DNA of 64,000 nucleotides from Bispira polyomma. Its lineage: Eukaryota. The notes under the pieces are model-generated. The model did no database searches. It saw only the letters and a program-made list of their open reading frames with translations, and was not told the DNA's origin. A program made the translations under genes and the position numbers. The stretch is taken from the NCBI GenBank assembly GCA_965649765.1, contig OZ287754.1:35340001-35404000 (forward strand). Reading direction: 5' to 3'. Positions 19,721 through 58,618 of the stretch are shown piece by piece; within the stretch, counting starts at the first letter, position 1; each line of letters opens with the position of its first letter.

Positions 19721-19871
19721 AGGCAGCGCCCCAGCGCCGACGATTTCAATTTTGGGGTACCAGTCTATTTGTAATGCTTGAGTGACTGCGGCCCACTATA
19801 AAAGGCCAGCTATTTAAATGCTCCCGCCTCTTTAACAATAGACGTTCACAGAACAACAACTTTTTGAAACA
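19721..19871 (+). repeat. Split direct repeat A1 (contains TATAAAA)
   Basis: Close match to 23521-23679 (AGGCAGCGCCCCA...TTTTTGAAACA). Confidence 0.9.
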
Positions 19872-22800
19872 AGAAGCCAGAAATTTCTGGAAATTTTATG
19901 TTGAATTTACAATTGTTCCTCGTTTTATCATTTTAAGCTTTTACTATTTTACATATTGTGTGTGTTACTATGCCTCCAGTATTTAATTGTTCGAAATGCC
20001 CTGGAAAACATGCCAGACCTGTTGGTGCTGCCTGTACTCTAGCGGCTGCTGGTGAGGGATCTTCTACCAACGCTGAACACATTGATCAATCCAATGTTGA
20101 TTTCTCCACTACAGATATTGGGGTAAATAATCAAATGTTGTTGCAACTTCAATCAATGAGTGCCATGATGGAAAGGATGGATCAGCGTGTTCAACTGACT
20201 GAAGCAGCATTGGCGGGAGATCATACCAAAAATCAGGCCAGTAATTCTACTCATATTAGTAGAAGTAGTAGTAGTTCTGTGAACAGTAATTCTGAAGCTT
20301 CGGCTCCTGAAAATGTAATACCTACTGTAGATTTTCTATGCACAAATGCTGAAATACAGTCAGGTCGATTTGCGTTTGGCTGAACTTAAGAGAATTAACG
20401 AGAGTCCCAGCCAAAGTAAATTGAAATCTAGGCGGGGGTGTTGATATTATTGTCAAACGGGTGGTCAAATGGCCACAAAATCATGTCTTAACCGGTAACT
20501 TTCGCACAAGAACCACCTATGACGACTTCTCTATCGCTCAATGGGTTTGTGGTTTTACGAGAATTGTACAAGACGAAAAGTGTAGTGAAATTAAAGAGAT
20601 TATGTTGGACTATGTCAAATTTAATGGAGGATTCAGAAGATTTCTCCTGGGAGGCAGCTAAAGCTTGCCACGCGGTGGTTTTGACTCAAATGGAGATGGA
20701 CTAGTTAAAGTGGTTGAAAGTAGACAAGCTCGATAGATTGAGAAGGGTACATGCGCAAAGACACGTTACTAGCAGTAATGCGGGCCAAAGTATCAGTAGT
20801 CGTGGTCCCAATAAATCTAGTCAAAATTCTAAACAAACCACAGCAAATTGCAAGTTCTTCCAGGAGGGAACCTGTAAATACCCCAATAGCCATAAGACTG
20901 GTAGTACTTATTTCAAGCACGTTTGTGAGACATGTGGGGGTACACATAAAAGTAGCACATGCAGTAGAAAGAGTTAAAAAAACTAGGTGGCCACTGCGTA
21001 ACTGCAGTGGACAAGTCTGTTTTTAGTCGGGTGTTTTATAACTCTAGCTTCTAGGAGTTACAGTTATTTAATAAGCAAAATCGGGATAGAATGTTCGTAT
21101 ATAGTAGAGGTAGACGAATGTGAATAATAAACAACAAAATAATGTATGTACTAATGTACCAGAAAGTCGAAAAAAGATTCAAGAATGTAAATTTTTAATA
21201 ACAAGAGGGATGCATCTACAACCCAGAACCGGCACAATTACAAGGGTTCACAACTAGCCATGTCCTCCCAACTAAATGCAGATAAGTGGACGAGTTACCT
21301 TGAACATTATTGGGATTGGCAACTTCACCTTATAGTTAAGTATGGGTTCCCCTTAGACGTAACACGGGAAAATATTAGCCAGTCTGAGAAGTTCGGCGGA
21401 CAAGTTCTCGGAACATGTAGATACATATTTGCAAGATGAGTGTCAATTCGGGGCCATATTAGGCCCCTATACTGAACCCCCTATCAAAGACTTACATTGT
21501 TCACCCATGATGACCCGCGATAAATCTAGCTCAACTAACAGAAGAGTCATAGTGGATTTGATTTGGCCACATGGTCACTCAGTAAATGCAGGGGCTTCTG
21601 CCACTTCTTATTTGGAAACATAATTCCTTCTTTCTTACCCGTCGATAGATAATATAACAAATGAAGCTTTCAGAGTTGGAAAAGGTTGTAAAATATTTAA
21701 AGTAGACATCAGTAGGGCCTTTCGTCACATCCCTATTGACCTGGGTGACATAGATTTGCTAGGCTTAAATTGGAAAAATTATTATGTTGATAAGTGTCTT
21801 CCGTTCGGCTACCAGAACAGAAGCACTATATTCCAACAATTATCGGACACAGTCAGATTTATCATGATGTCAGAGGGTTACAACATACACAACTATATAG
21901 AAAATTTTTTGGCCGTGAATTTACCCAGTAAAATTGGGTGCATTTATGAACGTCTTCAGATTCTACTATCTGAACTCGGTTTGACCATCAGTAGTAAGAA
22001 ACTTGTGGCCCCCAGCACACAGGTTGTCTGCTTGGGAATCATGGTAAATACAGAAAAATTTACAAATTGCATTCCCGATGATAATCTAACGGAAATTAGA
22101 GAAAAGTGTGCTAGCTGGAAAACTAAGACCCAATGCACAAAAAGGGAATTGGAATCATTACTGGGTTCATTACTGTATGTCGCAAAATGCATAAAATATG
22201 CCCCAGTATTCTTGAATAGAATGTTGCAATTACTGCATTTGTGGAAACCAAGTTTATCAGCTAAAAGTACCTAACCACATGACAAGCAACAATATAGCAT
22301 CATTGGAGATGATAAATATTCTTGTGGCCCTCAAACTTTGGTCTAGGGACTGGATTGGAAAAAAGGTGTTATTTAAGTGTGACAACCAAGCAGTTGTCAG
22401 CGTTCTAGAAACCGGACGTACCCAAGATCCTGTATTGGCTGCATACCCACGAAACATTTACATGCGGGCTAGTCGCTTTGATATCGAAATTAGAGTAATT
22501 TATATAATGGGAATTAAAAACAAAATTGCAGACCTACTCTCCCAGTGGGATAAAACAAGTAATAATAAGCAGTTACTCGAGCAGTGTGCTGGTCCTCTCA
22601 TCTGGTTACAAACAGATGAGAAATTGCTGGAAATAGACATGACTATTTAAATCTGTAATATGTGTTGTCTCTGTTTCAGGCATGCACCCTGTTGACTCAC
22701 TGCTTACAAGTAGAGCTTGTCAGAGGCTACACTCTGCCTTTTGTTGCTTCCACAGCAAGAGCATACGACAACATGTTCAAGATATTCATTGCCTTTGTGG

Positions 22801-23520
22801 CCTTTATGGGTTGGCCCCCCCACTCAGGTGAATGTATTCAGGCTTTTGTCTTTTCTAGAGTTCTTAAATCATAATTCTGCGTCGTCGGCTCAAATAATAA
22901 ATTACTTGTCTGCTGTGAAGGCTAAATGTATTATGTACCATGTAAATGTGGACTGATTTGCAGATCCTAGGGTGTCATATTTTAACCGAGCCCTTGCAGT
23001 TAATAGACCCCTGCAGGTAAAATTGAAAAGTATCTTTCCATTGCTAAAACCGTTAATTGCTAAGTGTGACTATACATAATTGGGACAAATTTTCAAGGCA
23101 ATTTTTATAAGATTGTCAAATTTATGACCCCACTCTGTTGCAGCTTATTCTCCCTTAAAACACCTAGCTGTAATGTTACTCATCAAATGGTCTAAAACAA
23201 TGCAAACAAATAATGCTATCAGGTTGTTAACACTTCCAGATATACCTAATTCCAGCCTGTGTCCGGTAGCAGCTTTGAGGAATGTTCTTGCCTTAACTCC
23301 CTCGGGTAGCAACGCCCCCTTGTTTCAGTTTAAGGTTGGAAGCTCTTGGGATCCCATGACTGACACTCGTGTCCAACGTTATCTGAAAAATGTACTCCAA
23401 TTGTTGGGTGGCCACCAGGCGAATCTGACCTTCCACTCCTTTCGACGTTCAGATGCCACATTTGCGTTTAATAACAACGTCAACCAGCAGGACATTCCAC
23501 GTCACAGCACCTACTCTCCC

Positions 23521-23679
23521 AGGCAGCGCCCCAACGCCCCAACGCCGACAATTTCACTTCTGGGGTACCAGTCTGATTGTAATGCTTGAGTGACTGCAGC
23601 CGACTATAAAAGGCCAGCCATATAAATGCTCCTGCCTCTTTAACAATAAACGTTCACAGAACAACAACTTTTTGAAACA
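23521..23679 (+). repeat. Split direct repeat A2
   Basis: Direct copy of 19721-19871 with a small internal duplication; followed by CCCACCCTTCCCTTCCC. Confidence 0.9.
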
Positions 23680-26085: not shown

Positions 26086-26805
26086 AACTGTCTATCATGA
26101 TATGACACAAAACTAAACATGGGTACATAAGGCTTGACACAGCAACATCAAAACATATTGTCCTATACTCAGCAATCAAACACCTAACGATATCATCCTT
26201 GTTTAAATAATGAAGAAATACATTCATTTTACAATATAGTAAATCCTTTGTAATAGATTTAATTATGTAATATGCTAAAGGTGTCATTTATATATAAATT
26301 AAGTTTTGTGGATCATTTTACAATAGTTTATTATCAAATTAAATCACATGCGTTATTATTTCCAGTGAAGCTTAAAAGCAGATTTGCATAGGTGTGTACG
26401 TACACTTAAGAAAAGGTTTTACAGTCAATTAAATGAGGGGCTCCCACTATAGAAAGTTAGAAAAACAATGCTGGTGTGTCTATGGCGATTAGTCTGTCGC
26501 AGAGAGATCCCTAGATAGAAAACTCTAGTTACAATGATTTCCATCTGAAAATCTGGGTAAGCGTCAATATTCACGGCCATTGCAGAAATTTAGAAAAAAC
26601 TTAAATTTCCGTAATACACATCGCTCAGCAGGGGGTATCGTACTCATACCCACTCATACACAATAAATGCAGAATACTCTCACAGCACACATGTAACCTA
26701 ACTTACACACGTGGGAGATACCTAGAAGGTAAAAACATATCGCGGCATGAATTCCTTTGATAAAATCCAGGTGTGAACCTGGGATCTGTTATCTGTTACA
26801 CACAA

Positions 26806-27512
26806 CATACCCACCTTACATTTGATTACTGTTACATATGATGGTGATACCCACCTCACATCTGATTACTGTTACATATGATGGTGATACCCACTTGACA
26901 TCTGATTACTGTTACATATGACGGTGATACCCACCTTACATCTGATTACTGTTACATATGACGGTAATACCCACCTTACATCTGATTACTGTTACATATG
27001 ACAGTGATACCCATCTTACATCTGATTACTGTTACATATGACGGTGATACCCACCTTACATCTGATTACTGTTTCACATGACAGTGATACCCACCTTACA
27101 TCGGTTATCTGTTATACACATCAGTGATAACCACTTGACATCTGATACTGTTACACATGACAGTGATACCCACCTGTCGTCTAATTACTGTTACACATGA
27201 CAGTGATACCCACCTGTCGTCTGATTACTGTTACACATGACAGTGATACCCACCTTACATCTAATTACTATTACACACGACAGTGATACCTACCTTACAT
27301 TTAATAACTGTTACACATGACCGTGATACCCACTTGACATCTGATTACTGTTCCATATGACAGTAAAACCCACCTTACATCTATTTACTGTTACACATGA
27401 CAGTGATACCCATCTGTCATTTGATTACTATTACGCATGACAGTGATACCTACCTTACATCTGATTACTGTTACACATATCAGTGATACCCACCTTGCAA
27501 CTTATTACTGTT
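26806..27512 (+). repeat. 40-bp minisatellite, about 17 copies
   Basis: Unit GATACCCACCTTACATCTGATTACTGTTACACATGACAGT, read directly. Confidence 0.95.
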
Positions 27513-29244
27513 ATATTCAAAACTCAACCAACCCTTTTCTTTTTAAGGCCACATCATAGATGCAACGCTGTAGAAGATATTGCGCTGTCTCTTTAGGTGA
27601 TGTTAATGGACTTACATGTAGCCAGAGCGACCCACAACATGTACGCATACAGGATTACATCAGATGCTGGAGTTATTGAGTACTATGAAGATGACAGGCA
27701 GTGGTCGGCTGGGCAGCATATCCTGAGGATTCTACGAGACAATAATGTGGTGAATAGACTTGTTTTGCTATCAAGGTGGTACGGTGGACAGAATCTGGAA
27801 CCCAAGCGATTCCAATGTATCGAAGATGCAGCTAGAGATATGTGCAAGTACTTTTCTAATAAAAACTAACCTATCAAATACTTAGAAAGTAGAAAGTAGA
27901 ATGTTTTTAGACACTATTTGGCACTATCTGAAAAATATAATGCTGTGTTAATATACTAAAAAAATAAATTGTACATTTTTGTCTGTACCTTTCTGAATTT
28001 TTCAGGAAGTGTTAGAAAATGAAATACTTAACATGGAAAATCTGAAAGACCACAGTAAATGTTTGACTAGATGAATGGTAAAAACTCTAATATAATGTGT
28101 GGATAAATGGTCAAAATATTAAAATAATGTTAGGTGTATTTCAAACAATGATTATTAGCCGAAATTCCTTATTTTTACTCCAGGAAATGTTTCCGCCATA
28201 ATACAAATATTTAGATTCTTTCTTTTACTGAAAATTCAAAACCAGGTCCTTCATCCCAACATTCATAATGTTTAAGCCTCTTGTAATATGTTTGGTATGA
28301 AAACAAGGTATCCGTGCCTTAGATGTATATTTCAATTGTATATGGAGTTGATTTATAAATTATTAACTATGTACAGGTACTGAGAATATTGCATTTAAAT
28401 AAATGTATTTTTTGGAAAAGTAGAGAATATCAGTCTATTTTAATATTATTAACCTTTGTTTCTGTGTCATGGCCTTCCTCTACTCAGTGCTTGATTTTGT
28501 CAAAGTTGGTCCGAGTTTTATAACATGGAAAAAACTTTTAACTCTAGCAATAATTCATCAGTATTCTGAAGGACCATGAGTGGCTCTACAATAAACGTGA
28601 TGCACTGTATAAAGACACTCAGAAGAAGAACATGCTGTTGGAGTTGTACTGTACTGCACGGGCAGGGGATTGGATTACAGTGAAGTGATAAAGTAGTTCT
28701 AATCTCAGAGAACTATCTTGACTATCAACCTGAGTGTGAGCAAGTCTGGGCAAGCTGCCGCAGAGTTGACTGAGCGACAGCAGTGGGTGAAGACCAACTT
28801 CAACTTCCTGAAGCTGCATATCAGACGCCAGCTCAACAAGTCTATCGGCTTCAAGCCTATCGCATCAGCTTCCAGGGGGCTGCCCCTCGTGAATCTCCTG
28901 GTGTGTTGTCCCACTCCAATACAAATCTGGCCTCACCAAAGTCTTCAACAGCCTTTGGATCCTCTACCCCTATCCAGGCATTGAGTTGGTTGACAATGGA
29001 CTGCTAGAACATTCCTTCCTGCAGTTCAAGAGGGAGTCCTTCAACCTAGTTACCACACTCCAGGAAATGGCAGGAGGAGGTATATTGCTGACATAATGTT
29101 ACCAATTGACAACACCACCACAACACCACCACTTTATCAACAACCACCACTACCAATCGGTCCTTTTCAGGGCTACCCAAATCATCCAAGAACATGATTG
29201 AAGCTGTTTGTTCAAAAAATGATATAAAAACCCTCATGACAAGA
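27513..29244 (+). repeat. Local duplication, derived copy (of 31125-33221, lacking ~365 bp internally)
   Basis: Near-identical to 31125-33221 from ATATTCAAAACTCAACC to AAAACCCTC.TGACAAGA; lacks ~32179-32543. Confidence 0.92.
27538..27869 (+). pseudogene. IMPACT/YigZ (UPF0029) domain fragment, probably the C-terminus of an L1/Tx1 ORF1
   Basis: F(Q)GH...VARATHNMYAYRI....EYYEDDRQWSAGQHILRILRDNNVVNRLVLLSRWYGGQNLEPKRFQCI matches the ATHNxYAYR / DDGE..AG / SRWYGG..LG..RF motifs. Confidence 0.8.
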
Positions 29245-29413
29245 TTACGCATGACAGTGATACCTACCTTACATCAGATTACTGTTACACATATCAGTGA
29301 TACCCACCTTGCAACTTATTAATATTACACACATCAGTGATATCCACTTGACATCTGATTACTGTTACACATAACAGTGATACTCACCTTACATCTAATA
29401 CTGTTACACATGA
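29245..29413 (+). repeat. Continuation of the 40-bp minisatellite (about 4 copies)
   Basis: Same unit as 26806-27512. Confidence 0.9.
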
Positions 29414-31124
29414 CAAACTTTTAACTCTACCAATATCTGTTACAAATTATGATATATGACCTTGCTTTGAGTGGCATGAAACTCTATATGCCTCTTCATG
29501 ACCAGTTTTTTTTATCATGACGGTTATGCACAAAAACTACTTTTTATGATTTTGGATAATGTTTGTTATGTATTAGTTTTTTTTGTTAGATGTGATTGTG
29601 GTGTACATGGTATGAATTTTTATGTTCAGATGTGGTGTATTTATGTCTTTAAAACAAATTTGAAACCCCCCACTCACCCCCTCAAAAAAACCTTCTAGAT
29701 AATAATTTGAAATGATCCCGGATATTAAATGCACCACCATCATATTATTGTTAGACTATCTTTGTGTATAAACACCCATAATGTTGTATTTATTGTCAAA
29801 GCAAAGTAATTGTCTTTAACATATTGCTAAGAACATTATTTTACAAGAAAATGTGATTATTTCGTTCTAAGAACATAGCAATATACTAATGGTATGACTT
29901 TGTTAACCTAGTATTCACATAAATGTCACCTGAGAAGATCTTAACCCAAATGTGAGTGGGACTAAGAATATCAGGAAATATTGTTATGAAGATAGATACA
30001 AATCCTGTCTTTTAATTTCGCTGATGAGAGTGTTAGCAGATTGTTGTATCTCAATTTCAGTAATAGCCAATTTCTTTTTGTCTGAATATGTTTACTATAC
30101 TCAATGCTATTCAGTGATCTGCTGAGCTGTTTTGGAACAGCATAGGCATCTGTGTGCAATGGGGAATGAAGCTGAAGAATAACAGTTTTATTAAGGGTTA
30201 ACTCCATCGCCCTTAGTTTTATTCCAGGTGCCACACCCTACAAATGACGGATTACCATTAGAAGCCCAATCTGCAACATTACCGGTGTACTGAAAAATAC
30301 TGACTCCCCTAAATTTGCAACTAGGGGGCAGTATTTTGCAAGGGGGGTTGCTTTTTGAGAAAATCAGTGGTATAGGGTGCGTAGGGTGTGTAGGGTGGGC
30401 ATGGGGAGAAGGAATTATCAAAATTATTATGAATTAAACCATTCTTTCTCAAATATTTCCATAAATTAATACAAAATGTGAATAACTAATTGTAGCTATA
30501 TCGTTTTTTTACTAGAATCAAGAATATTATCATGTATAGCCTTTTGTTCATTTCATGAAAGTATGTGTATGTATATCATCAACAATAAATAAATACAATC
30601 TTTTATGTGTAAGGACTTTACCAAATATATTTAGAGATATTAAAGTATTAGGTATTTCATTAGTTAACCCTATATATAAATTTGATTGTAACTAAGAAAG
30701 TTACTTGAATTTAATATGCGATACATACTACACCCAACATAGGTATATGTTGTTGCTTCTTTCCTATTAATTTCCAGCTCCTTAAAGAACTAATTCAGTA
30801 TGTCCTTTGTGTAATGAAGAAGAAGTGTGGCGTCCAATGCCATCAGAATAAGTGACAAAATCAATGACATTAAAGATATAAAATATATAAATTTGCTTTG
30901 TAATGATAACATACTGTAACTAATTAACTGTTACTTATTGACATATATATTATAATGTAAATGTTCATTTATTATATCCGCTGAATGTATGTTGTTGACA
31001 TATTGCATACTCATAATATATGTTTAGAATTCCACAAAACATTTTACATTTCACGACTAATGATTACTATTTACTGATGAGTAGATCATATTAATCAGAA
31101 GTTAAAGACTGAAATCACACAATA

Positions 31125-33221
31125 ATATTCAAAACTCAACCAACCCTTTTCTTTTTAAGGCCACATCATAGATGCAACGCTGTAGAAGATATTGCGCAGT
31201 TTCTTTAGGTGATGATAATGGACTTACATGTAGCCAGAGCGACCCACAACATGTACGCATACAGGATTACATCAGATGCTGGAGTTATTGAGCACTATGA
31301 AGATGACAGGCAGTGGTCGGCTGGGCAGCATATCCTGAGGATTCTACGAGACAATAATGTGGTGAATAGACTTGTTTTGCTATCAAGGTGGTACGGTGGT
31401 GAATCTGGAACCCAAGCGATTCCAATGTATCGAAGATGCAGCTAGAGATATGTGCAAGTACTTTTCTGATAAAAATTAACTTATCAAATACTTTAAAATA
31501 GGTAGAAAGTAGAATGTTTTTAGACACTATCTGACACTATCTGAAAAATATAATGCTGTGTTAATGTACTAAAAAAATAAATTGTACATTTTTGTCTGTA
31601 CCTATATGAATTTTTCAGTAAGTGTTAAAAAGTGAAATACTTAACATTGAAAATCTAAAAGACCACAGTAAATGTTTGACTAGATGAATGGTAAAAACTC
31701 TAATATAAAGTGTGGATAAATGGTCAAAATATTAAATATAATGTTAGGTGTATTTCAGACAATGATTATTAGCCAAAATTCCTTATTTTTACTCCAGGAA
31801 ATGTTTCCGCCATAATGCAAATATTTAGATTCTTTCTTTTACTGAAAATTCAAAACCAGCTCCTTCATCCAAACATTGATAATGTTTAAGCCTCTTGTAA
31901 TATGTTTGGTATGAAAACAAGGTATCCGTGCCTTAGATATATATTTCAATTGTATATGGAGTTGATTTATAAATTATTAACTATGTACAGGTACTGAGAA
32001 TATTGCATTTAAATAAATGTATTTTTTGGAAAAGCAGAGAATATCAGTCTATTTTAATATTATTAACCTTTGTTTCTGTGTCATGGCCTTCCTCTACTCA
32101 GTGCTTGATTTTGTCAAAGTTGGTCCGAGTTTTATAACATGGAAAAAACTTTTAACTCTACCAATAAGTCATCAGTATTGCAATCTGGCGTTTTGAATCT
32201 TTTACTGTAGAAAGAGGATGTAGACAAGGAGACCCTATTGCACCATACTTGTTTCTATTATGTGGCCAAGTATTTTTTCTCATGACAAATTACAATAATT
32301 GTATTAAAGGGATTATATTAATGAACATATTTTTTAAATAGGCCAATTTGCCGATGACATTACATTAATTCTTGATGGAAGTAAGGAATCCCTGCTGACA
32401 GCTCTGAATACCCTAGAAATTTATGGTAATATAACACGGATAACGCCGGACAGTGAGATGAGTGGGACAGTCGCAAACAGAAGAAGGGGAAGATGGGGAC
32501 TGTGTTGTTAAACGATGAGCAGGAGGAGGCTGTGGAGGACTTTCTGAAGGACCATGAGTGGCTCTACAATAAACGTGATGCACTGTATAAAGACACTCAG
32601 AAGAAGAACATGCTGTCGGAGTTGTACTGTACCGCACGGGCAGGGGATTGGATTACAGTGAAGTGATAAAGTAGTTCTAATTTCAGAGAATTATCTTGAC
32701 TATCAAACTGAGTGTGAGCAAGTCTGGGCAAGCTGCTGCAGAGTTGACTGAGCGACAGCAGTGGGTGAAGACCAACTTCAACTTCTGAAGCTGCATATCA
32801 GACGCCAGCTCAACAAGTCTGTCAGCTTCAAGCCTATCGCATCAGCTTCCAAGGGGCTGCCCCTCGTGAATCTCCTGGTGTGTTGTCCCACTCCAATACA
32901 AATCTGGCCTCACCAAAGTCTTCAACAGCCTTTGGATCCTCTACCCCTATCCAGGCATTGAGTTGGTTGACAATGGACTGCTAGAACATTCCTTCCTGTA
33001 GTTCAAGAGGGAGTCCTTCAACCTAGTTACCACACTCCAGGAAATGGCAGGAGGAGGTATATTGCTGACATAATGTTACCAATTGACAACACCACCACAA
33101 CACCACCACTTCATCAACAACCACAACCACCAATCGGTCCTTTTCAGGGCTACCCAAATCATCCAAGAACATGATTGAAGCTGTTTGTTCAAAAAATGAT
33201 ATAAAAACCCTCCTGACAAGA
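31125..33221 (+). repeat. Local duplication, longer (donor-like) copy: IMPACT fragment + L1/Tx1 ORF2 remains + MADF gene
   Basis: See 27513-29244; second IMPACT copy at ~31150-31480. Confidence 0.9.
32060..32440 (+). pseudogene. L1/Tx1-clade reverse transcriptase fragment
   Basis: FTVERGCRQGDPIAPYLFLLCGQV...IKGI...GQFADDITLILDGSKESLLTALNTLEIYG. Confidence 0.85.
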
Positions 33222-37425: not shown

Positions 37426-37508
37426 GTAAGCTTATTGCATTGCATTAGATTATCTCTATTGGATTAGATTATCTTCATTTCATTAGATTGTGTAACGTTT
37501 TTTTTCAG
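37426..37508 (+). other. Candidate short 5' intron of the GPCR gene
   Basis: Strong acceptor at 37507-37508. The nearest donor-like G|GTAAGC is at 37426, but the true donor could be farther upstream. Confidence 0.35.
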
Positions 37509-37523
37509 ATAACGAGAGAAAAT

Positions 37524-38765
37524 ATGGCCCTGTCGCTAGAATATCAATGCCTTTTAATAAAGGAGCACTTTGACATGGTTCAAGCTGCATCTGAAGTGGA
37601 TTCAATTGAATATAATCAATCAAGCGGTCCTGAACTTTGGGGAAACCTGACCGATAAAAATAACACCTCTGGAAGCAACTTCACAGAAAGAGATCACTTG
37701 GAGCTCGAAGGAAATCCTGTTTTGGAAGAAGTCAAATACTATTTGCTTGGGGTGGTTCAACCGTTTCTCTGTTGTTTTGGAATCGTTGGGAATATGTTAA
37801 ACATTTTGGTGTTATCCAGGAAGAAGTTCAAAACGTCCCTTGACTGTAGTATGGAAATAGCTGCCATGTGTGGACTCGTAGCCCTAGCCCTTTCGGATAC
37901 ACTCTATTGTATTAGTATGCTCCCAAAGGCATTCCTTAATAAGTCTGTCGTGATTTTTAGCAGTATGAACTTCTATATGGTTTACCAGATGCATGGAACA
38001 GCAATACAAAATATCTTCACGTATATTAGCACATGGCTAACAGTACTCATGGCTACAACAAGGTATATTGCAATTTGTAGGCCTCTGCATGCCAGGTACC
38101 TTGTTGAAACAAGAGCTACCGTTCTAGCAATAATCTCACTAATATTCCTATGCTTTCTGCTTGGTCTACCAGCATTTTGGAAGTATTCGTACATAGCATG
38201 CGCTAAAGAGAGCTTGTATATAATAGATCAAGGATTCTTTGTGAAGAAAAAGATGTTTAAAAATATCTTTACATGTTTATGGTGTGTGATTGGATTCTTC
38301 ATTCCTATGACCATACTGGTGTACTGTAACATCAATTTGATCGGGGCATTAAGGGAATCAATGCGCATGCGCAAGCACTACAGTGTAAGCAACAAGGCGG
38401 CTTCTCCTGGGAGCCATATCACTCCAACATTAGTTGCAGTTATATGTCAGTTTCTTTTGCTCATGACCCCCTCTGAGGTGATGAATTTCTACTACTTTGC
38501 AGTAGGCCGTGATACCGCTGAAGCCTTCACATTTGCTATTGTTGTCACCAATATTCTACAGACATTAAACTTTAGTCTTAATTTTATATTGTATTGCATC
38601 GTCAATAGCCGCTTTCGAAGCACACTTATACACCTTGTGTACTGCAGGAAAACATCGAGGGAATCTCACTACCACATGCGGATGTCTGCTTCTGGTAGGT
38701 CGTCTGGTGTAAGCCACACAAGACAATCTCTATTAACTACCAGTAACAAAGATACTGCAGTGTAG
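37524..38765 (+). CDS. Rhodopsin-class (class A) GPCR, FMRFamide/peptide-receptor-like, 413 aa, single coding exon
   Basis: Intact ORF with seven hydrophobic segments: TM1 FGIVGNMLNILVL, TM2 LALSD, TM3 STWLTVLMATTRYIAICRPL, TM5 FFIPMTILVYCN, TM7 NFSLNFILYC..N.RFR. N-terminal sequons NQS/NLT/NNT/NFT. ATG 37524 follows the acceptor TTTTTTTCAG (AG 37507-37508). Confidence 0.93.
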   Translation: MALSLEYQCLLIKEHFDMVQAASEVDSIEYNQSSGPELWGNLTDKNNTSGSNFTERDHLELEGNPVLEEVKYYLLGVVQPFLCCFGIVGNMLNILVLSRKKFKTSLDCSMEIAAMCGLVALALSDTLYCISMLPKAFLNKSVVIFSSMNFYMVYQMHGTAIQNIFTYISTWLTVLMATTRYIAICRPLHARYLVETRATVLAIISLIFLCFLLGLPAFWKYSYIACAKESLYIIDQGFFVKKKMFKNIFTCLWCVIGFFIPMTILVYCNINLIGALRESMRMRKHYSVSNKAASPGSHITPTLVAVICQFLLLMTPSEVMNFYYFAVGRDTAEAFTFAIVVTNILQTLNFSLNFILYCIVNSRFRSTLIHLVYCRKTSRESHYHMRMSASGRSSGVSHTRQSLLTTSNKDTAV

Positions 38766-44015: not shown

Positions 44016-45159
44016 ATGGGGAGGACAAGGAAAACCCCTTTGAGTGTGCCACTTAAGGATAAAAAACGTGCTCCTAGTAAGAAGGTGACAACAAAGACAG
44101 GTACTTCTGCTCGTGTTTCGGATCCGTTAACCATGAATTTAGAGGGTCTACTAACAGATACAACGACCCCCCCAACCTAATCCGGCTGGCAGTAATCAAG
44201 CCAATCTTGGGGATGTGATGGCTGTGCTTCAGAGGTTAGAAACGGCTAATTCAGATATTACCAGATGTCTCGACAGGGTCGAGTCGCGTGCATGTAGTTC
44301 TACCTCTCTCGGTTCACCTTCCGCCTCCAGAAACGGGACGATTTAGGATCAACCTCAGCCGGGCGAGTTCGTCCTCCCGCTGCATCCGAGAGACCACACT
44401 CGAGACCCTGCTTATCACCAGCCCAGGGCATCTCACCATGACTACCAGAGAGATGGCATTATACCTAAAGTAGATGTTTTAAGATCACTCCCAGAGGTAA
44501 CTGCAGCGGTGAATTACCGCCTTGCTACCTATGACGCCCAGCTACGCACAGAACTTACCCAAGGTAAGCCACTACTGCCACATAAGTCGGGACGTTATAA
44601 TACCACCGACATCGCTAATGCGGACCCACAATTCAGGTGGCCAAATGAGGGTTGCAGTGGGGTAGCTAGTAAAAAGAGACCGGCGTTTGACGACCTGACA
44701 CTTCCCCAATGGGCAGCCGGCCAATTATTTAATGTTTCACAAGTCCAGGACCAAACTTTACTGAGGCAAATGCTTGACCAGGTGATTAACTCATTAAAGG
44801 ACGCTTCTTCTCTCCCATGGCCAGCAGTTAGGGCAGCATGGGCTGCCAACATGCAGGAGGTGGAGGAGGGGCGCCTCCATTGGAGGGATGCCACTCAATG
44901 GGCACTAACGTGAATGAGTGTTTCCCAGCTGACGGTTCTGAACAGCCAGCATACAAACACAGGAACGGCTACTCAGAAGGGCAAATTATTGTGTAAATTT
45001 TACAACCTCGGCAAGTGTCATCAGGAAGGGGATCACGGGCAGTACCGACATATTTGTTCCTACTGCCACAGAGTCCTTAACACGGATGCTTCCCACCCGA
45101 CGGCAAAATGTGAGAAAAACAACTCCAAAACAAATCAAAACCAGGGAAACAAAGCCTAG
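44016..45159 (+). pseudogene. gag-like ORF1
   Basis: MGRTRKTP...; KSGRYN..RWPNEG..FDDLTLPQWAAGQL; C-terminal CKFYNLGKC..H..HICSYC..HP..C. Frameshifts and a TGA at 44911. Confidence 0.8.
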
Positions 45160-45356
45160 GGGTACAGTCAACAACTAACTGAACAAACGATTAGAAAGTG
45201 CGGGTATTCTGACAGTAGTATAGATGATGTAATTTGTTGTTATGGTAGTGATGAGCTTAAACATCAGAAAGTAAACAGAACTGTAACTGGTAATGACTAT
45301 ATAAGTTATGTGGTAATAATAACAGTAATATAGTAAAATTTCAGACAGAGTGTGTT

Positions 45357-47913
45357 TTGAAGCCCAACTTAAATGAGGGCATTATTGACTATAATGAAGA
45401 AGTACATAGTGACAGTATTTATCAGAATTTCAGTAACCAGATGTCACAATCTTCTGTAAAAGACATTAATCCTGAAATAATTACTAATGTTTATGATGTA
45501 GATTGTAATGACATAACTAACAGAGACTTTAATGGGGTTACCAAGGGTAACTACGAACTATGTAATGTCAGTGATGTGGACCATGATCAGGGTCATAGTG
45601 GCATAAGTTCTTTGGCTACTGTGTCTACTTGTAACTGGGTGGATCAAGGCATCCACAACTTAAATAACATTGTCTATCTAAATGTGCATGATTATCCCAT
45701 GGCTTCAGGGTTCTGTTACCAAAATTTCGGTTCTGATGGTTCTTACCAATTCAGTGCCTGCGGGCAAGTCCCTAATTCTTACTTGGAGATTATAACAACC
45801 ATAGAGATAATGGTCTATATTGATCCTACCTACTGGGTTTGTAACCAGTACACTCCAAAACAAAGGCAGTATGCCAATAATGTACATTACCATTATAACA
45901 GAGACCTGGAATGCCATGGCACTTATGGCTGTGATTATACACAGTATATTGGTAAACTTATTGATCACATAATTGATAGAGATGATTCCACTGGGGACAA
46001 TAATAATTCACCCATGCTGGAACCTGCCAGTGAACCTGACAATGCTAGAATCACGTCCATCCGTTCATCTGACAAACAAGCTGGCTGGTCGGGCGAACAG
46101 GACAGCTAACATTTTACCAATTTGATTACACAGAGTAAAAGGCATACCTCCTTTATTGATAACAAGACCACTGATATTCACGATAATACCAAAGCACTTG
46201 GCTTCATTAAGTTATCACATGTGGACTTTGAATTCACTGGTCCAGATAAGGAACCTATGACTATCACTACTGTTGACAATATGCTAGAAATAGCCGAAAT
46301 TATTAGAGACACAGGCGTTCCCAATTACAGGGCTGCCAGAATTCCTTTAAGTTATGGCCTCAATATTGAAGCCTGGGAAAACATACTTACAGGTCACCAT
46401 GACAAAATCCTGTTACAGTATCTTAAATTCGGATTTCCTCTGTCTCTGGAAAATCCTCAGCTACTGCATAACAACAATCTGAACAATCATCACTCTGCAA
46501 CACAATACCCTCAAGAGGTGTTTAAGTATCTTGAAAAGGAAAAGTCTAAGGGCACCATTTTGGGCCCAGTTGCTCAAATAAGAGATACCCATTACCATGC
46601 TTCTCCCTTGTTGACTAGGCCAAAAGACATTGATAAGCGTAGGATTATTCTCAATTTATCTTGTCCTCATGACCTTTCAGTTAACAGTCAGGTCTCCAGA
46701 GATACCTTTGACAGTGTTAAGTTTGCACTTAGGTTCCCCACCATTGATCACATCACTGAGGCTACTAGAAATACCAATGACCCAGTAATGTTTAAAACGG
46801 ATGTCTCCAGGGCCTTCAGGAACCTTAGGGTTGACCCGGTTGATGCTGTGAAGCTAGGTATAAATTGGGACTGTAAATCATATGTTGACGCTGCCGTGGC
46901 ATTTGGCTGGGCCCACGGCAGCGCATCTTTTCAGCGTTGTTCTGACATTATAGCTGAGGGATCAAGGTTTTACACTGTTCTGTTACATTGATGATTATGC
47001 ATGTATTTGCAATAGAGAGAAAGCTAGTAAGGGTTATGACCTGCTTCATGACATACTTCTGAAGCTTGGCCTTCCCATCAACCAAAAAAAATCAGTCTCC
47101 CCCAGTACTTTCACAACCTTCTTAGGTATAGACATAGACATTCAGGAGGGCATTAACAGCATTAACCAAGACAAAATTGATTCTATTTACAAGGAGCTTC
47201 AGCTCATTAGTCAGAAATCCTGGTTATCACGAACAAAATATCAATCTATGCTAGGGAAGCTCCTATATGTGCATAAGTGTGTTTGCCCTGCCAGAACTTT
47301 TATAAACAGACTATTAGCTGTATTTAGGGATAACCCTCAAGCCAAACGATTCAAGGTTACACACAATATAAGACAAGATATTGCTTGGTTCTTATCTTTT
47401 CTTCCCCTGTATAACAGCATTACATACATTTCACCCAAGGACATTCAACATATGCAAGAATTCCACTTAGATGCTTGTCTGACAGGTTTCGGCAGCATTT
47501 GGAATAAGGAAGTATATGCTAGCCCTATATACAACATTTACAACAGAACCTTGGACATCACACAGTTAGAAATGTTAAACATTATTATAGCATTAAGGTT
47601 ATGGGGTAAAAACTGGGCCCACCAGAGAGTCACAGTATGGTGTGACAACCTGGCAGTGGTGTTAGTTGTTGACACTGGTAAAACTAGGGATTCTTTTCTT
47701 GCCACATGTATCAGAAACATATAGCTTTTAGTTTCCACCTTCTACATAACATTAAACATAAAACATATTAGGGGTCAGAAAAACATTAAGGCGGATGCTT
47801 TATCCTGCATTCACTCTGCCAATCCTCCAAATATAGGAATAATGAGAGAGCTAGACAACTATCACTGGAGACACATACCTATAGAATTCTTTAACTTAAA
47901 TTATATCATATAA
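45357..47913 (+). pseudogene. pol: long N-terminal extension + RT + RNase H
   Basis: PNYRAARIP..FGFPL; ASPLLTRPK..RRIILNLS; FKTDVSRAFRNL; FGWAHGS; CYIDDY; FHLDACLTG..ITQLEMLN..WCDNLAVV..HIRG..N..ADALS. Several stops and frameshifts. Confidence 0.9.
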
Positions 47914-51317: not shown

Positions 51318-51729
51318 CAGTCCTATGGGAAAGAAGCCAATAAGTGAAAAGCAGTATATAAAACATATTTGGAGTTTATTTTAAAACATTCCTTCTTTAC
51401 CCTTTTTGTTACAACATTAACAACATGTTAGCATTACTATACATCACTGTCTGTTAACACAACTACTTTTACACATTACTTTTGTTAGGATTATTAACAG
51501 CTTTTATTGTGACATTAATATTAATCTACATGTTAAAACTCTACTACTGACACCTATAATACAATATAGCTGGGAAGCGTTTAGCTCATGGAGCATTCTG
51601 GCTTACATCTTTTATAATTACTAATCAGGCATGCCATTTACCTACGGTGTTAAGCTATCATTAACCATAGTTGAGGAATGTCTGGTATACTAAAACTTAA
51701 GTATCGAAATTTTAAACAATTGTAAAGGG
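51318..51729 (-). repeat. Split direct repeat B2
   Basis: Direct copy of 52151-52563. Confidence 0.95.
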
Positions 51730-51771
51730 ATAAATTAAAAGAACTTTAATCATGGGTAAGTGGAGGGTGGG

Positions 51772-52150
51772 TTTTCCAATATGGCGCTCAGCCCTCTAAA
51801 CTTCCAACTGACTTTGAACCCCAAGTCTGGAGGTATTTGTGCACATAGATTTCAGCAAGCCCCCATGTGCTTTAACAACTCACAGCCTCAGTATCAGAAG
51901 GCCTAGTTGTATGCAACAAATGGGTAGACAGCCACCATATGATTTAATATCTCAAGCTTGCAGACACCTTGTGGTCTAGTTATGTGCAGTACATACAGGA
52001 CAACCTAGGGGTGACCTTCCACTTTAACTATTGAAACCTAAAACTAATATTGATACCAAAGTAGCAAGGCCACTTGTGTTTAATTTTATGTTTTTTAAGC
52101 TTTTCCTAAAACTGACACAGTTTGCTACTTAAATTCCGCAACACCTATTA
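51772..52150 (-). repeat. Split direct repeat A2
   Basis: Direct copy of 58239-58618. Confidence 0.95.
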
Positions 52151-52563
52151 CAGTCCTATGGGAAAGAAGCCAATAAGTGAAAAGCAGTATATAAAACATA
52201 TTTGGAGTTTATTTTAAAACATTCATTCGTTACCCATTTTGTTACAACATTAACAACATGTTAGCATTACTATACATCACTGTCTGTTAGCACAACTACT
52301 TTGACACATTACTTTTGTTAGGATTATTAACTGCTTTTATTATGACATTAATATTAATCTACATGTTAAAACTCTACTACTGACACCTATAATACAATAT
52401 AGCTGGGAAGCGTTTAGCTCATGGAGCATTCTGGCTTACATCTTTTATAATTACTAATCAGGCATGCCATTTACCTACGGTGTTAAGCTATCATTAACCA
52501 TAGTTGAGGAATGTCTGGGGATACTAAAACTTAAGTATCGAAATTTTAAACAATTGTAAAGGG
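52151..52563 (-). repeat. Split direct repeat B1
   Basis: Direct copy of 51318-51729; abuts A2 at the junction GGACTG|TAATAGG (minus strand). Confidence 0.95.
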
Positions 52564-52590
52564 CCAAACCCCAAATAAGTTGTAGAAATT

Positions 52591-53561
52591 TTAAGACAGT
52601 AATTTTTGAAAGGTAGTGGGTACTACACTAGAAGCTTTTGGAGTTGAATTTAGGTATGTCCACACCGCATCACTCTTCCAATTTCCATGGGTTTTAATAT
52701 TTTGCAAATTGACATTGCTGTCAAAAGCAAGAGAAGCACCGCTTCTACGAAATGCATGAAATCCAAAAGCTTTGGGAGAAAGTCCAATCCTAGTAATAGC
52801 CAGTTTAAGAAAAGATCTAGCTTTAAAGGCTGTAAGAGGTACTATACCAGCTTTAGTTTAATTAAAAATAGAGGAGACTCTTCCTGAGCAGGAAATTTTT
52901 TTACACATTTGTCGAATTGCTTTTACCAGGCAGATCAATTTGTCGGATAATAAAGGCAATTGTACTATATGGTATTGATCTGATATGTGCATATTTTTTG
53001 CACACGTCATTACAATATGTATACCTGGATTACCCCATATGAGATCAGCCCTAGTGGGAAATTATGTCCTATCAAATTCCTTTACTGAATTTGGTACTAA
53101 GGAAGCAAGCCTAAAAAAGCCAAAATAAGCACTTAGGAAGATAGCTACATACGTTTCTGCATTTAATAAACCTTGTATTGCTTTAATCATTTTTTTCAGT
53201 TGGTTTACGATTAGGACACTCTTTACCTTAAGTCTGATCGAGGCATTGATCTTAATTGATTTTATTAGCATTTGCACTTTTCTAGAAATAAGACCATTTT
53301 TAGGCCAATCAAAAAGCCCAAAAAATTGGGAGAGAGTTGACATGTGGTTGCTGATAGACACAGCTCTGAGTCCTTGTTGAATGAGGTACTCTACGAAGCA
53401 GACGAGAGTCCGTGGGCAGTGGGGAACTGTCAGCTGTAAGAAGGTCATGAAGGCCAGAAATAAGTTAAACGTCGCATCATAGGATTTCCTGGTGCGAGGT
53501 CTCAAGGCCGTAGGTATGCGCTCCATAGCTTGGTGTTCCAATTTCTCAGCCATTGATTTGC
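52591..53561 (-). pseudogene. Tyrosine recombinase (premature stop at ~53062)
   Basis: ALRPRTRKSY; YFGFFRLASLVP; GFHAFRRSGASLAF; HGNWKSDAVWTYL. Confidence 0.9.
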
Positions 53562-53765
53562 CTAGAAACATATTACAAGCAACGCAGTACTATGCTCTAG
53601 CATGTCATATGACATGTATTTTGGGCTTTAATGAGACTATAAATCTTCCACATTCTTATTCTGGTCTATGTTAGAGGAATCTTTGTAATCTATAAATGCA
53701 TATACATATACTTATGCTGTGATCTTTGAGAAATTGTTACATAATTATATTTCATTATAATGACA

Positions 53766-55110
53766 CTATATATAAAAATTTGGCATTAACATGTCACCAT
53801 GTGTAGGTAACCAAGTACATTGATTCTTTAGGTAATTAACTGTTGAAATATTGGCATCTTGATAAACATGCCACTTAGACAAAATGTCTGCATAGACATT
53901 ATTGACTCCTGGTATATGTAGCACCTGCAACTCAATATTGTGCGCAGCTACATAATACCAAGTTGTACGAAGGCAGGCCATAAGCCATGGATCTTTAGCC
54001 TTTTTTGAGGTAAATACCTGGACCACAGCAAAGTTGTCACACCACAGTGTAACTTTAGTATTCTGCCATTCATGAGCCCATAGCTTGAGAGCCAATAAAA
54101 TATTGGCTGCCTCAAAGTGGACATTAGATCTATAGTTTTTAACTGACATGAGGATATCTGCACTATACACTTGTCCATTAAAATAACCACCCACTTTCTC
54201 CAATAAAGCATCTACATATACTACATGATTAATGGTATTTTTAGTATGTATTCCACTACCCCATTAAAAATCTCCAGAAATTGGTTAAACCATTGGATAT
54301 CTTTAAAAAACATTTCCGGTAGTTTAATACTTCCTCTCATAGGAGCAGTACGTAAAACCTGTAAAATACGATTAATGAAGATACGTGCTGGTCGCACACA
54401 TCGATGTATATAAAGGAGCTTTCCAGTCAGCCTCTGCAATTGGTTTCTAGTAGCAGTGGTTTTACTAAGCCAATTTCTACATAACTCTTTTACTTCTTTA
54501 ATTTTCTGACTAGGAATAGTTAACGTACCTGTACTGGCATTGATATTTATACCCAAACAATTAATTTCAAGAGCTGGAGATTCCAGCTTTTTACTATTAA
54601 CAGGAAGGCTTAATTCTGTGAGTAGATTTTTTGCTGATAAGAATTGTGAGTTAGCTACGTGGGGAGGAGCGACCCCAATAAAATCATCTAAATAATTCAT
54701 CATCCAGACGTTACGTTGACGCAACATTGACGTTACAGCGTCAGTACATAACTGGCAAGCGGTTGCGCCCGTACGAAAACCGAAGGGTAACCCTATATCG
54801 ATATAAGTATTATTTTGCCATTGCAGGCCCAATACAGGATAGTCGTATGGATCAATTCTTAAAACTCTAAAAGCTCTCTGAAGATCAATTTTATATAATA
54901 ACACTGTAGGACCATACATTCGAATTTTTTCAACCACTTGGTCAATAGTAGGATATTTTAAAGTGAAAGGTATATTATCATATACATCTATGGGGACACA
55001 ACTATTTACACCCTGGCCTAAAGGCCATGACAGGTCCACTATTACCCTGGTACCTCCATCTGGCTTAGGCCTAGCCATCAGTGGAGAAAAGTGTATATTT
55101 TCGAAAGGTT
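53766..55110 (-). pseudogene. RT + RNase H
   Basis: SPLMARPKPDGGTRVIVDLSWP; YKIDLQRAFR; LPFGFRTG; NYLDDF; RNase H HFEAANIL..WCDNFAVV..HIPGVNNVYADILS. Frameshift at ~54220. Confidence 0.92.
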
Positions 55111-57107
55111 TGGAAGAGGAGCATGAGGGAGAAACCCAAAATCACGAGGTTCAGTCACCATCTCCCTTTTTGTTTTAATAAACCAGCTGGTAGCTTTTAC
55201 TTTAAACAAATCATAACTATTTTCTTTAGTGGCATTGTTAAAAGTGTAATTTTGTACGACTAATTTAATCATATTTGATTTTTCATCAAAATGTTTGTAA
55301 CTTGTATCTTCTATATAAGAACCAACTGTGTTAGAATGGTGGTTACTACCAACCTTCATTGCCATGCTGTCATGCATATATGAAGTATGTCCGAATTCAT
55401 ATATAATACTACTATCTTCTGTATAAGTAGCATGCATGTGAATCATGGACTGTAATTGAAAATATGCCAAACATTCGAAAGTTTCATAAAAGCTGGGATA
55501 TTGACAATTAAAATCATCAGCAGTGTTCAAACTGGGACTAAAATGAGCGCAGAGTACATCATTTGTAATATCAAATAAAATCAAATCATAAGTAATGAGT
55601 TCATTCTGCCTTAACCCGTTAATAGTAAAGACTTTATTAATATAGTCATCAGAATTGTAATGTCCCGTATTAGACCTTCTGGTCTCATTAATATCACCAT
55701 GTTGTTCATAAAAGTTGTTATAACTATTACTAAGAACTAACTCTGTATAAAAAGAACCATTCAGTTCTGTGTAATTGCAAAGTAAAGTAGTTGAAAGTTC
55801 ACTAGGGCTGAGGCCATTATAGTACTCCATTAAGGAAGTATTATTAACTTCTTGTACTGAATCCATACTATCACCGTGTATCTTGTTTATATGTTCACGT
55901 TATGATTAGCCAACGTGTGTACATTATGGACTTTTCTATTAAGGTGACTGCCATTCTGAATGTGAACATCATGATCACACGTGTTTTTACACATAGCATC
56001 CTGCCATATTTTAAATGCACTGTTGTTGTAGTATGTCAGTACACTATGGTGTTCCATTTTTGTTTCACATCTACCACTGTTTATATTCTTCTCTGAACAC
56101 CTGCTGTCAAAACAAGTTTTACCACCACCCCATAAGTCCTTTACCCCTTGTGTTATTTCAAGAGACGATTCAAGTGTTGAACAAGGGTCAAGGTACTTAT
56201 TATTGTTGCAGTATCTAGAACTTACCTGGCAGCAATTTAGTGCAACATGTTCTAATGTACACGTAATTAGATAACTGGACCTATGGACCAACGAGGACAG
56301 GGTGTTCAGGTCATTAGAATCTACAGTTATATTGGCCATACTAGTGTTATTGTTATTTACAGTGACAGATACGTTACTAGCTTTAACAAAAGTATAACTA
56401 TTTCTGTCACTTGTACTAACTATGTGACTAGTCACACCATAAACACTATTGCTAGAATTATTCTCTTGTGACATTAATAAATTAACATCGCTCCCATGAA
56501 CTCTGTTATAAGAGCTCGACACATTTGTATTCATTACTAAGTTGTCACTAAGTCTATCAACATTTATTTTAGTACTATTATTAGATTCTATTTTTTCAGC
56601 TAGTACTTTGCACCGGGAAGACATTTTTCCTGTATCATGACTTTTGTACATAAACACAGTAGCCAATAGGTTTAATTGGTTTCCCATATTCGGGTCTTTG
56701 TTATAACTGATACCATGATCACGTTTTTTAACACGAGCACCTTGTTTTGGGCTAAACTCGCTGGTCAATGGGTTCAAGGTGGTTTCATAATTTCCAACAC
56801 CTTCATTCAATCTATTTTTAGGCATATTATTACATGATTTGGTATAAACATACATACTAGTAGAACGAGTATCATGTTGTAACCATTTACTATCAGTATT
56901 ACAAATTTCCTGTCTAAAAATTTTTGCACGTTGATTTAATTTAGTTTTATTACAAGTACCTTCCATATTATGATTTATCTTTACAATAACTGTGTCGTTG
57001 TAATTTAGGCCAAGGTTATTATAATATTTCCCGCCGTTGTTAACTTTAGACACATTACAACTAATAGGGTTAAACTCGCTGCTCAGTTTTCTGTCCCTTA
57101 CTATCAT
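55110..57107 (-). pseudogene. Long Asn/Ser/Thr-rich N-terminal extension of pol (ORFs of 406 and 262 aa)
   Basis: Two long ORFs between gag and RT separated by a frameshift; no catalytic domain recognised; PAM2-like motifs (see findings). Confidence 0.65.
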
Positions 57108-58119
57108 TTTTCATTCGCACACATTTGCAAGCGGGGTGATCATGCTTTTTGCCACGTGTCTCTTTGTAGCAGTAAGTGCAGTAGTGCTCATATTTGAAAC
57201 CTCTGGATACATGGTCCTTGTCTAGCTTACAGGTACCCTTATTAAACAAGGAGCAGACACTACTTTCTGTATTCCTGTTTTCACTACTACCTGTACCACC
57301 GTTATAGTGGACCCTTTGGGCATTTCTAGCTCTGATTTTTTCTATCAGTTCGATTTTGTCCCATGTGACCTGCCCTTTTTCGATTTCTTGAAGTACTGCA
57401 GCATGCGCTTTCTTAGCTGCTTCTAATCCCAACTCGACAGCGTCTTGCATTAAGCTAACATGGTAATTAAGCATAACCTGCCTTTTCTCAAGATCACATT
57501 CCTCTAACGCGCAACAAAGCAACCCCTGTGCCCATTGTATGGGAGACATTTCGTCGTATGTCGATTGTTTGTTGGTATGAGCGACGGTGCAATAATATTG
57601 GGGCCAGGTGACCTGGACTTTTACTTTATGTACACCCACTCTATACCGGCCAGATTTTAAAGTGGAAGTATTTTTACCTTTATAGTCAAGACATGAAGCT
57701 CCTTCATAATCACGCAATCTCTTCTGAACTTCGGCTTGTATACGGGAGTCACTTTTGAGGACTTCCAAAAAGGGTAGCTTTGGAACTGCACTCTCTGGAA
57801 CAGCCGTTTTCTGACCCATAGCCTTTGGTGAACCTTGGGCTGACGGAAGCACAGAAATTTCATTTAAACTCACTCTGTCCTCTTGTTTTTTCAACCGTTC
57901 GTCCTGATTATTTAATTGCACACCCATACCCTTCACAACCATTAATAGTTCAGTTAATTTGTCCGACATGGACTTGCTGTGCGTATTTGTTATCTCGGCT
58001 TCTTCACTCTCAACATTATTAGTAACAATATCAGTATCTGGTACATTATTTTCACTTCTTTTAACAGTACTTTTATTTGTACTTTTACTGTTCTTGCTAA
58101 CTCCCGGCTTAAGCCCCAT
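57070..58119 (-). CDS. gag-like ORF1 (open)
   Basis: Uninterrupted ORF of ~349 aa from ATG 58119; coiled-coil-like segment, LKSGRYR, TYDEMSPIQWAQG, C-terminal CSLFNKGTC..H..HYCTYC..HP..C. Confidence 0.8.
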   Translation of the reverse strand: MGLKPGVSKNSKSTNKSTVKRSENNVPDTDIVTNNVESEEAEITNTHSKSMSDKLTELLMVVKGMGVQLNNQDERLKKQEDRVSLNEISVLPSAQGSPKAMGQKTAVPESAVPKLPFLEVLKSDSRIQAEVQKRLRDYEGASCLDYKGKNTSTLKSGRYRVGVHKVKVQVTWPQYYCTVAHTNKQSTYDEMSPIQWAQGLLCCALEECDLEKRQVMLNYHVSLMQDAVELGLEAAKKAHAAVLQEIEKGQVTWDKIELIEKIRARNAQRVHYNGGTGSSENRNTESSVCSLFNKGTCKLDKDHVSRGFKYEHYCTYCYKETRGKKHDHPACKCVRMKNDSKGQKTEQRV

Positions 58120-58238
58120 TTTGTAAAACACTTGACTCTGGAAGGACTTTTGCCGGCTTGACTGTTAGGAATTTAAAAGGTAATTCTAAGTCTGACTAAA
58201 ATTGAATTTTCTATGTAGTCAAGCAGACAGGAGTCCAA

Positions 58239-58618
58239 TTTTCCAATATGGCGCTCAGCCCTCTAAACTTCCAACTGACTTTGAACCCCAAGTCTGGAGG
58301 TATTTATGCACATAGATTTCAGCAAGCCCCCATGTGCTTTAACAACTCACAGCCTCAGCATCAGAAGGCCTAGTTGTATGCAACAAATGGGTAGACAGCC
58401 ACCATGTGATTTAATATCTCAAGCTTTGCAGACACCTTGTGGTCTAGTTATGTGCAGTACATACAAGCCAATCTAGGGGTGACCTTCCACTTTAACCATT
58501 GAAACCTAAAACTAATATTGATACCAAAGTAGCAAGACCACTTGTGTTTAATTTTATGTTTTTTAAGCTTTCCCTAAGACTGACACGGTTTGCTACTTAA
58601 ATTCTGCAACACCTATTA
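58239..58618 (-). repeat. Split direct repeat A1 (5' terminus TAATAGGTGT)
   Basis: Direct copy of 51772-52150. Confidence 0.95.

Follow-up and report, generated by a model that had tools for sequence, protein, structure and literature searches.

The gag end of a decayed Ngaro-like tyrosine-recombinase (YR) retrotransposon, located between 19.7 and 24 kb of the window (the whole stretch of 64,000 nt that was analyzed), carries a compact and conserved cassette of 34 nt (20977–21010, plus strand), made up of the slippery heptamer A AAA AAC, a 7-nt spacer, and a hairpin. Judging from sequence comparisons, one clade of Ngaro-like elements very probably produces Gag-Pol by −1 frameshifting at this cassette. 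The conclusion is carried by the heptamer, its reading frame and its spacing to the hairpin, by the hairpin itself in two copies of the window, by a K-N end of Gag across the clade, and by the Pol of one relative, which spans the hairpin in frame −1. Ribosomes on the unspliced RNA would reach A AAA AAC at the gag end and pause at the 7-bp hairpin 7 nt downstream; a predicted minority would move back by one base and continue into Gag-Pol, and the remaining ribosomes would terminate zero to a few codons further on, releasing Gag.

The cassette in two copies of the window

The sequence-only reading had proposed a −1 signal composed of a heptamer, a 7-nt spacer, and a perfect stem, and all three parts were found exactly where it had placed them. 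The heptamer (20977–20983) codes for K-N in the gag frame, and the A-run at this site comprises seven A (20976–20982). It is followed by the spacer TAGGTGG (20984–20990), which starts with the gag stop TAG (20984–20986), and by the perfect 7-bp hairpin CCACTGC-GTAACT-GCAGTGG (20991–21010), a putative frameshift stimulator with a predicted folding energy of −11.3 kcal/mol. In the −1 frame the hairpin is translated as H-C-V-T-A-V, and this frame is open for 23 codons from the heptamer (20983–21054, LGGHCVTAVD...), its closing stop not being common to most other contigs of the sequencing runs considered below. The consensus of −1 programmed ribosomal frameshifting (PRF) signals is X_XXY_YYZ, a spacer of 5–9 nt, and a stem-loop (PMC3542737); the 20-kb site has such a heptamer in the zero frame, a spacer of this length, and a predicted stem-loop, and few heptamers are as prone to shifting as A_AAA_AAC (PMC5009743).

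Perfect 7-bp stems with at least 5 G/C start at 4 of the 64,000 window positions, and two of these four are the junctions of the 20-kb and 60-kb copies. The chance of such a stem in any given 5-nt window is 3.1e-4, and approximately 0.25 pairings of heptamer and stem are expected by chance over all 812 heptamers scanned; the significance of the cassette therefore comes from its location at the gag end. The 77-nt region 3' of the heptamer does not fold better than shuffled sequence (z −1.15). A stem of 7 bp is short for a frameshift stimulator. A pseudoknot was considered as well, since the hairpin loop (20998–21003) is exactly complementary to 21056–21061, 45 nt downstream (1.7% of 70-nt segments contain such a complement, or 12% with G-U pairs allowed), and was rejected, as the 60-kb copy has no loop complement at all. 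The segment 21056–21061 also forms part of a second hairpin at 21039–21059.

The 19.7–24 kb element itself is a dead copy (all features on the plus strand). Its gag (19970–20974), which has a Cys/His motif near the end and is 35% identical to the relative P0014 over 344 columns, is broken by stops and frameshifts. Ribosome access to the heptamer is blocked by gag-frame stops at 20702 and 20975, the relatives being open to K-N; the second of these stops, TAA (20975–20977), shares the first base of the heptamer and disables the site here, its place being taken by a sense codon in relatives. The remnants of pol (21230–22650) include the pre-RT domain, RT, and RNase H, contain several frame breaks, and leave no space for a methyltransferase. 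Homology to pol is first seen at 21230, where it lies in the gag frame instead of the −1 frame. A pyrimidine tract with an AG acceptor ending at 22679 and a broken tyrosine recombinase coding sequence follow (22655–23519), and split direct repeats A1 (19724–19871) and A2 (23532–23679; 91% identity) flank the element.

Three sequencing runs (at most two samples from one study), which possibly derive from the source organism of the window, contain the 20-kb element, and 242–253 contigs per run were aligned on 20400–21700. The summed depth at the junction is approximately 11–15 times that of the window-identical contigs, a ratio that is not a copy number. At the stops 20702 and 21052, most of the depth differs from the window in all three runs. 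Each run also contains one contig with extra sequence at 21116, and the remainder of this added length matches the frame offset of the 20-kb pol. One-base deletions in the A-run occur in single contigs, and no common difference in 20968–21051, the overlapping stop at 20975–20976 included, was found among the 40 listed of 358 difference rows.

A second cassette of the same clade (60479–60513, minus strand) was identified in the 60-kb copy, as GCAAAAAC (60513–60506), a 7-nt spacer, and the hairpin GCACTGC-6nt-GCAGTGC (60498–60479). It bears out the expectation of a minus-strand copy that is one A short and has the same geometry and a compensatory C-G/G-C pair. The A-run here is five long, one shorter than the heptamer requires, and the frame of the hairpin (RIKHCKTAVQ) is open for 61 codons; two indels are required for this copy to fit the −1 model. 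The two cassettes share 12 of 14 bases in the stem arms, 3 of 6 in the loop, and 1 of 7 in the spacer. Of the earlier description of the hairpin as covarying, the compensatory pair is real, but a single pair in two sequences is weak at the DNA level. A perfect 8-bp hairpin was also noted at 60283–60303, approximately 175 nt downstream of this cassette, and a motif NWR.D...SYA.V is conserved near the Pol N-terminus in the clade with K-N ends (~60330–60380, minus strand; P0186, P0102).

The varying length of the A-run, seven in the 20-kb copy, five in the 60-kb copy, and one base shorter in single contigs, together with the tails of relatives P0077 and P0099, which look frameshifted at the run, might also point to slippage of the polymerase, adding a base in some transcripts, rather than of the ribosome. 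We consider this highly improbable: dead copies are expected to vary in genomic run length, and the C that closes the run completes an exact X XXY YYZ register, with the hairpin following at ribosomal spacing.

Gag ends and junction peptides of relatives

A search with the C-terminal part of the 20-kb Gag retrieved six proteins, the closest database Gags, all six of which end in [A/P/T/S]-K-N-stop. A profile search produced 2,853 matches, the best 150 of which were used, giving 155 non-redundant proteins with the matches of the C-terminal search included; 81 representatives have a readable C-terminal tail, and 76 have a tail of 3–30 residues and are testable. Among these relatives from the best 150 of 2,853 matches, 35 of 76 end in K-N plus 0–1 residue (mean of 6.1 and maximum of 17 in 10,000 shuffles), whereas the other 41, some of them members of other clades or broken copies, lack such an end. 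The residue before K is S, A, P, or T in 32 of the 35 K-N ends (background 0.24, p 7e-17). The reading of the TAA before the heptamer as a mutated TCA is thus supported as to the replacement of a sense codon, while TCA specifically cannot be fixed, as A, P, and T occur besides S. The codons of S, A, P, and T are of one type, and their free third base could, by inference, supply the first A of the heptamer in the database relatives. K-N is followed directly by the stop in 17 of the 35 relatives, by E in 7, V in 5, D in 4, N in 1, and K in 1; since the residue after N varies, K-N does not mark an invariant C-terminus.

A quick tree (IQ-TREE, 93 rows) was built from an alignment cut before the Gag tails; in it, the 20-kb and 60-kb copies both fall inside a clade of 39 rows (SH-aLRT 99), the 20-kb copy clustering with P0014 and P0023. 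Among the 37 database rows of this clade, 26 end in K-N plus 0–1 residue; in the sister clade, to which the nested copy of the window belongs, K-N is wholly absent. No gag-pol fusions longer than 658 aa were found, which is weak evidence, and a gag alignment search of viral, prokaryote, and metagenome contigs for the DNA of relatives found none. At least 119 metagenome matches to the DNA pattern of heptamer and hairpin were discarded as background, since none of 119 matches any gag or window ORF, and the ESM Atlas returned unnamed clusters only, with a recognition value under the usual threshold.

The hairpin was traced at the protein level with a template built from both window hairpins and compared with junction peptides in 11 cases, the peptides and frames being picked by eye. 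The clearest case is P0186, from the cluster of a Gag ending in SKNE. Its N-terminus, MRHCRFAVP, resembles LGGHCVTAVD and RIKHCKTAVQ, which the two window copies encode at −1; read in that frame, P0186 agrees with all 14 template positions (0 of 20,000 random peptides did so). It is open for 366 aa into the pre-RT domain, in a frame deduced from the peptides, and in both window copies the downstream −1 frame is broken, after 23 and 61 codons. P0084 likewise agrees with all 14, in frame 0 (none of 20,000 random peptides did so), and further fits were obtained for P0172 (7/7, P 0.001), P0035 (9/11, P 0.019), and P0077 (10/14, P 0.037). In total, 5 of the 11 cases reached P < 0.05; the 6 cases with no fit comprise five from outside the core clade and P0325 from inside it. 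Both the site (35/76 K-N ends) and the structure (5/11 hairpin fits) are conserved among relatives, as seen at the protein level.

The same peptides raise the question of whether Pol is translated by termination-reinitiation or from an internal AUG close to where gag stops, with the A-rich end and the hairpin serving this or another RNA function, e.g., packaging. In the P0025/P0186 cluster a −1-frame Met would overlap the gag stop (Gag N-E-stop and Pol M-R-H-C, as reconstructed from the proteins), and the role of the hairpin in frameshifting is a predicted one. The AUG is not conserved, however: the 20-kb copy has its first in-frame ATG at codon 37, the 60-kb copy at codon 58. In addition, the distance from K-N to the hairpin is constant while the location of the stop shifts, and we regard reinitiation as very unlikely.

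Still less credit is given to the explanation that no programmed slip occurs, K-N being kept for a function of Gag and the hairpin arms as the Pol code H-C-x-x-A-V, which seems to us extremely unlikely. The arms do fall inside the coding region of pol, encoding HC..AV in three families, and at the DNA level there is just one compensatory pair. Such coding constraint would leave pol without an expression route, and it explains neither why K is preferentially preceded by S, A, P, or T nor why the residues past N vary, nor the perfect complementarity of the arms; moreover, the sister clade is entirely without K-N. The proposal that a −1 cassette at the gag/pol junction leads to Gag-Pol is accordingly well supported by K-N ends, tree, and hairpin for the clade of the 19.7–24 kb and 60-kb copies.

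Gag/pol junctions of the nested and 43.8-kb copies

The nested element (51318–58618, minus strand), complete with split direct repeats A1 ... B1 A2 B2, is an insertion into the 60-kb copy, whose RNase H region it interrupts. Its gag is an open frame (57070–58164, minus strand) that ends in ...KTEQRV-stop, and its first pol frame (55887–57110, minus strand) is +1 to gag. Past the gag stop, 395 codons are open in the +1 frame, compared with 22 at −1 and 2 in the zero frame. The gag end GTT TAA C (57069–57075, minus strand) is a candidate +1 shifty-stop site, since closteroviruses are proposed to shift by +1 at the motif GUU_stop_C (PMC3542737). As in that system, the motif stands exactly at the gag stop of the nested copy and the polymerase frame is +1; the systems differ in that one is a plant RNA virus and the other a retrotransposon, whose relatives end in V, I, L, and sometimes A.

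Gag relatives of the nested copy end in TEQRV, DQRV, EQRI, KQKV, QNV, and QSL. The copy belongs to a clade of 17 rows (SH-aLRT 98), 14 of which end in V, I, or L; the other three are one truncated representative, one row ending in A, and one ending in S. In the corresponding clusters, a redundant set, 67 of 78 members end in V, I, or L and 8 of 78 in A. For the frameshifted relative P0208, the V codon is restricted to GTT or GTC, and in P0208 as well as in another frameshifted relative, P0210, the −1 frame shuts approximately 10 codons past the stop. On this evidence a +1 shift at GTT-stop is somewhat more likely than not in the nested copy, a judgment tempered by the single DNA copy, the A-ending members (8/78), and the non-C base that is inferred to follow the stop in the P0208 cluster.

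The sequence-only reading had instead interpreted this junction as a −1 heptamer site that lost one A. The string CAGAAAACTGA is indeed present at 57093–57083, and the loss of one base there would likewise put pol in the +1 frame. Gag, however, reads on to T-E-Q-R-V-stop as do its relatives P0003 and P0221 (P0008 also ends in V), and since this natural TEQRV-type end is common to relatives, nothing was lost at 57083–57093. The V, I, or L ends of the clade rows and of the redundant cluster members, and the closed −1 frame of P0208 and P0210, argue against the −1 reading as well; the base preceding the A-run does not give XXX, and no hairpin is found downstream (z 0.13). A −1 site minus one A in this copy is accordingly a highly doubtful interpretation. 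The Pol N-terminus of the nested copy (55887–57110, minus strand) and of P0186 was further observed to contain the segments LNPLTSEFSP, LNQRAKIF, and KLNPQVFES, which by eye resemble PAM2 motifs (poly(A)-binding protein interaction) and for which no Pfam match was obtained.

The gag of the 43.8-kb copy (plus strand) ends in G GGA AAC (45144–45150) followed by AAA GCC TAG (45144–45159 in total). The extension of the −1 model to this copy is unsupported. The motif G GGA AAC does stand in the gag frame, and ORFs 45297–46109 and 46110–46991 are at −1. In place of the single intervening stop that had been noted, however, the −1 frame contains 11 between 45147 and 45296, and no hairpin is found (z +1.5). 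The zero frame is open for 57 codons beyond TAG (45157–45330). Readthrough plus a single later indel explains the junction as simply as a −1 shift plus two; UAG readthrough may operate in this copy. In the quick tree, the 43.8-kb copy lies on a long branch with a 15-kb fragment, which is without the heptamer, and an alignment of the two junctions, at 15 kb and 45 kb, yielded nothing reliable.

Element class and relation to known recoding systems

The window is AT-rich eukaryotic DNA, probably of an animal in view of a GPCR frame described below, and self-comparison located pieces of decayed YR retrotransposons (gag, RT, RNase H, YR) at ~19.7–24, 43.8–49, 51.3–58.6 (minus strand, nested), and 50–61 kb (minus strand), in addition to fragments. 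At least eight YR-element pieces are found within 64 kb, with one Ngaro-like element inside the RNase H region of another. Among these repeats, a 438-codon frame (37449–38765, plus strand) with 7tm_1 and Srw matches represents a host gene of the rhodopsin family of GPCRs, and the window further contains a 40-nt tandem array (26687–27625) and a near-identical duplication (27513–33084, period ~3.6–4 kb).

The order gag, RT/RNase H, tyrosine recombinase was found in these elements. The RVT_1 match of the 20-kb copy (E 9e-7, 29.2 bits) is just under the cut-off of 29.6, and that of the nested copy is above it; weak RVT_3 and integrase SAM-like matches were also obtained, as well as an HSFRRS-type YR motif recognized by eye. 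Repeats of the arrangement A1 ... B1 A2 B2 are complete in the nested copy, and only A1 and A2 were found in the 19.7–24 kb copy. In two copies, Pol extends only ~35–40 residues beyond its final RNase H motif, leaving no room for a methyltransferase, and the absence of this domain after RNase H distinguishes Ngaro from PAT-like and DIRS-like elements (PMC9210276, PMC7192593). By the published definitions of gene order, repeats, and methyltransferase absence, the YR elements of the window are best classified as Ngaro-like.

Expression of the recombinase probably takes a separate route, through a spliced Gag-YR RNA. AG acceptors directly before YR end at 22679, 47919, and 53562 (minus strand), AG|GTAA donors are located in gag at a G-K dipeptide (44564; 57677, minus strand), and the phases of donor and acceptor, read by eye, join gag to YR in frame. 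In 44 of 93 relatives, the motif KS[GQK]R has a G-K dipeptide no more than 14 residues before it.

Frameshifting by −1 is a known mechanism, with pol in the −1 frame in 28 of the 51 animal LTR retroelements of a cited survey (PMC3542737, PMC5009743). The cassette resembles the gag-pol −1 PRF signals of retroviruses and LTR elements in its gag-frame heptamer, 7-nt spacer, stem-loop, and, as read from the relative P0186, pol at −1 (PMC3542737, PMC5009743). It differs in belonging to a YR retrotransposon with split direct repeats, in the 7-bp stem, and in the gag frame that usually stops right after the heptamer, inside the spacer. With Ngaro (order DIRS), the window elements share gene order, the A1 ... 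B1 A2 B2 arrangement, and the lack of a methyltransferase (PMC3783388, PMC9210276, PMC8547959, PMC7192593), and a gag/pol recoding signal is not described in the available text of these four papers. A frameshift was proposed by Poulter and Butler (2015, quoted in PMC13003380) at the junction of RT/RH to YR; in the elements studied here, by contrast, a splice acceptor that matches the phase of a donor inside gag stands before YR. No other recoding proposals for these elements were found in the literature available to us, including the accessible parts of PMC6681497, PMC3266345, PMC8556966, and bioRxiv 10.1101/2022.06.16.496473, and the accessible text of PMC5009743 mentions neither "Ngaro" nor "tyrosine recombinase"; Goodwin and Poulter (2004) or Poulter and Butler (2015) may mention a gag/pol site. 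The use of the mechanism at the gag/pol junction of Ngaro-like elements thus apparently is undescribed.

More surprising than the −1 signal is a different lead, namely that the sister clade appears to have a +1 shifty stop instead. We give an even chance to a switch of the gag/pol recoding mode within one animal Ngaro-like lineage, with −1 frameshifting in one clade (A AAA AAC and the 7-bp hairpin) and +1 frameshifting at NUU-stop in its sister clade both being real. That all three modes are real, i.e., these two and UAG readthrough in a third clade represented by the 43.8-kb copy, is a speculative and rather improbable extension. Expression of three genes is little documented in tyrosine-recombinase retrotransposons, and the 34-nt cassette makes the synthesis of Gag-Pol directly testable in a reporter. 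Recoding would also account for the fact that such elements seem "broken" in ORF-based annotation.
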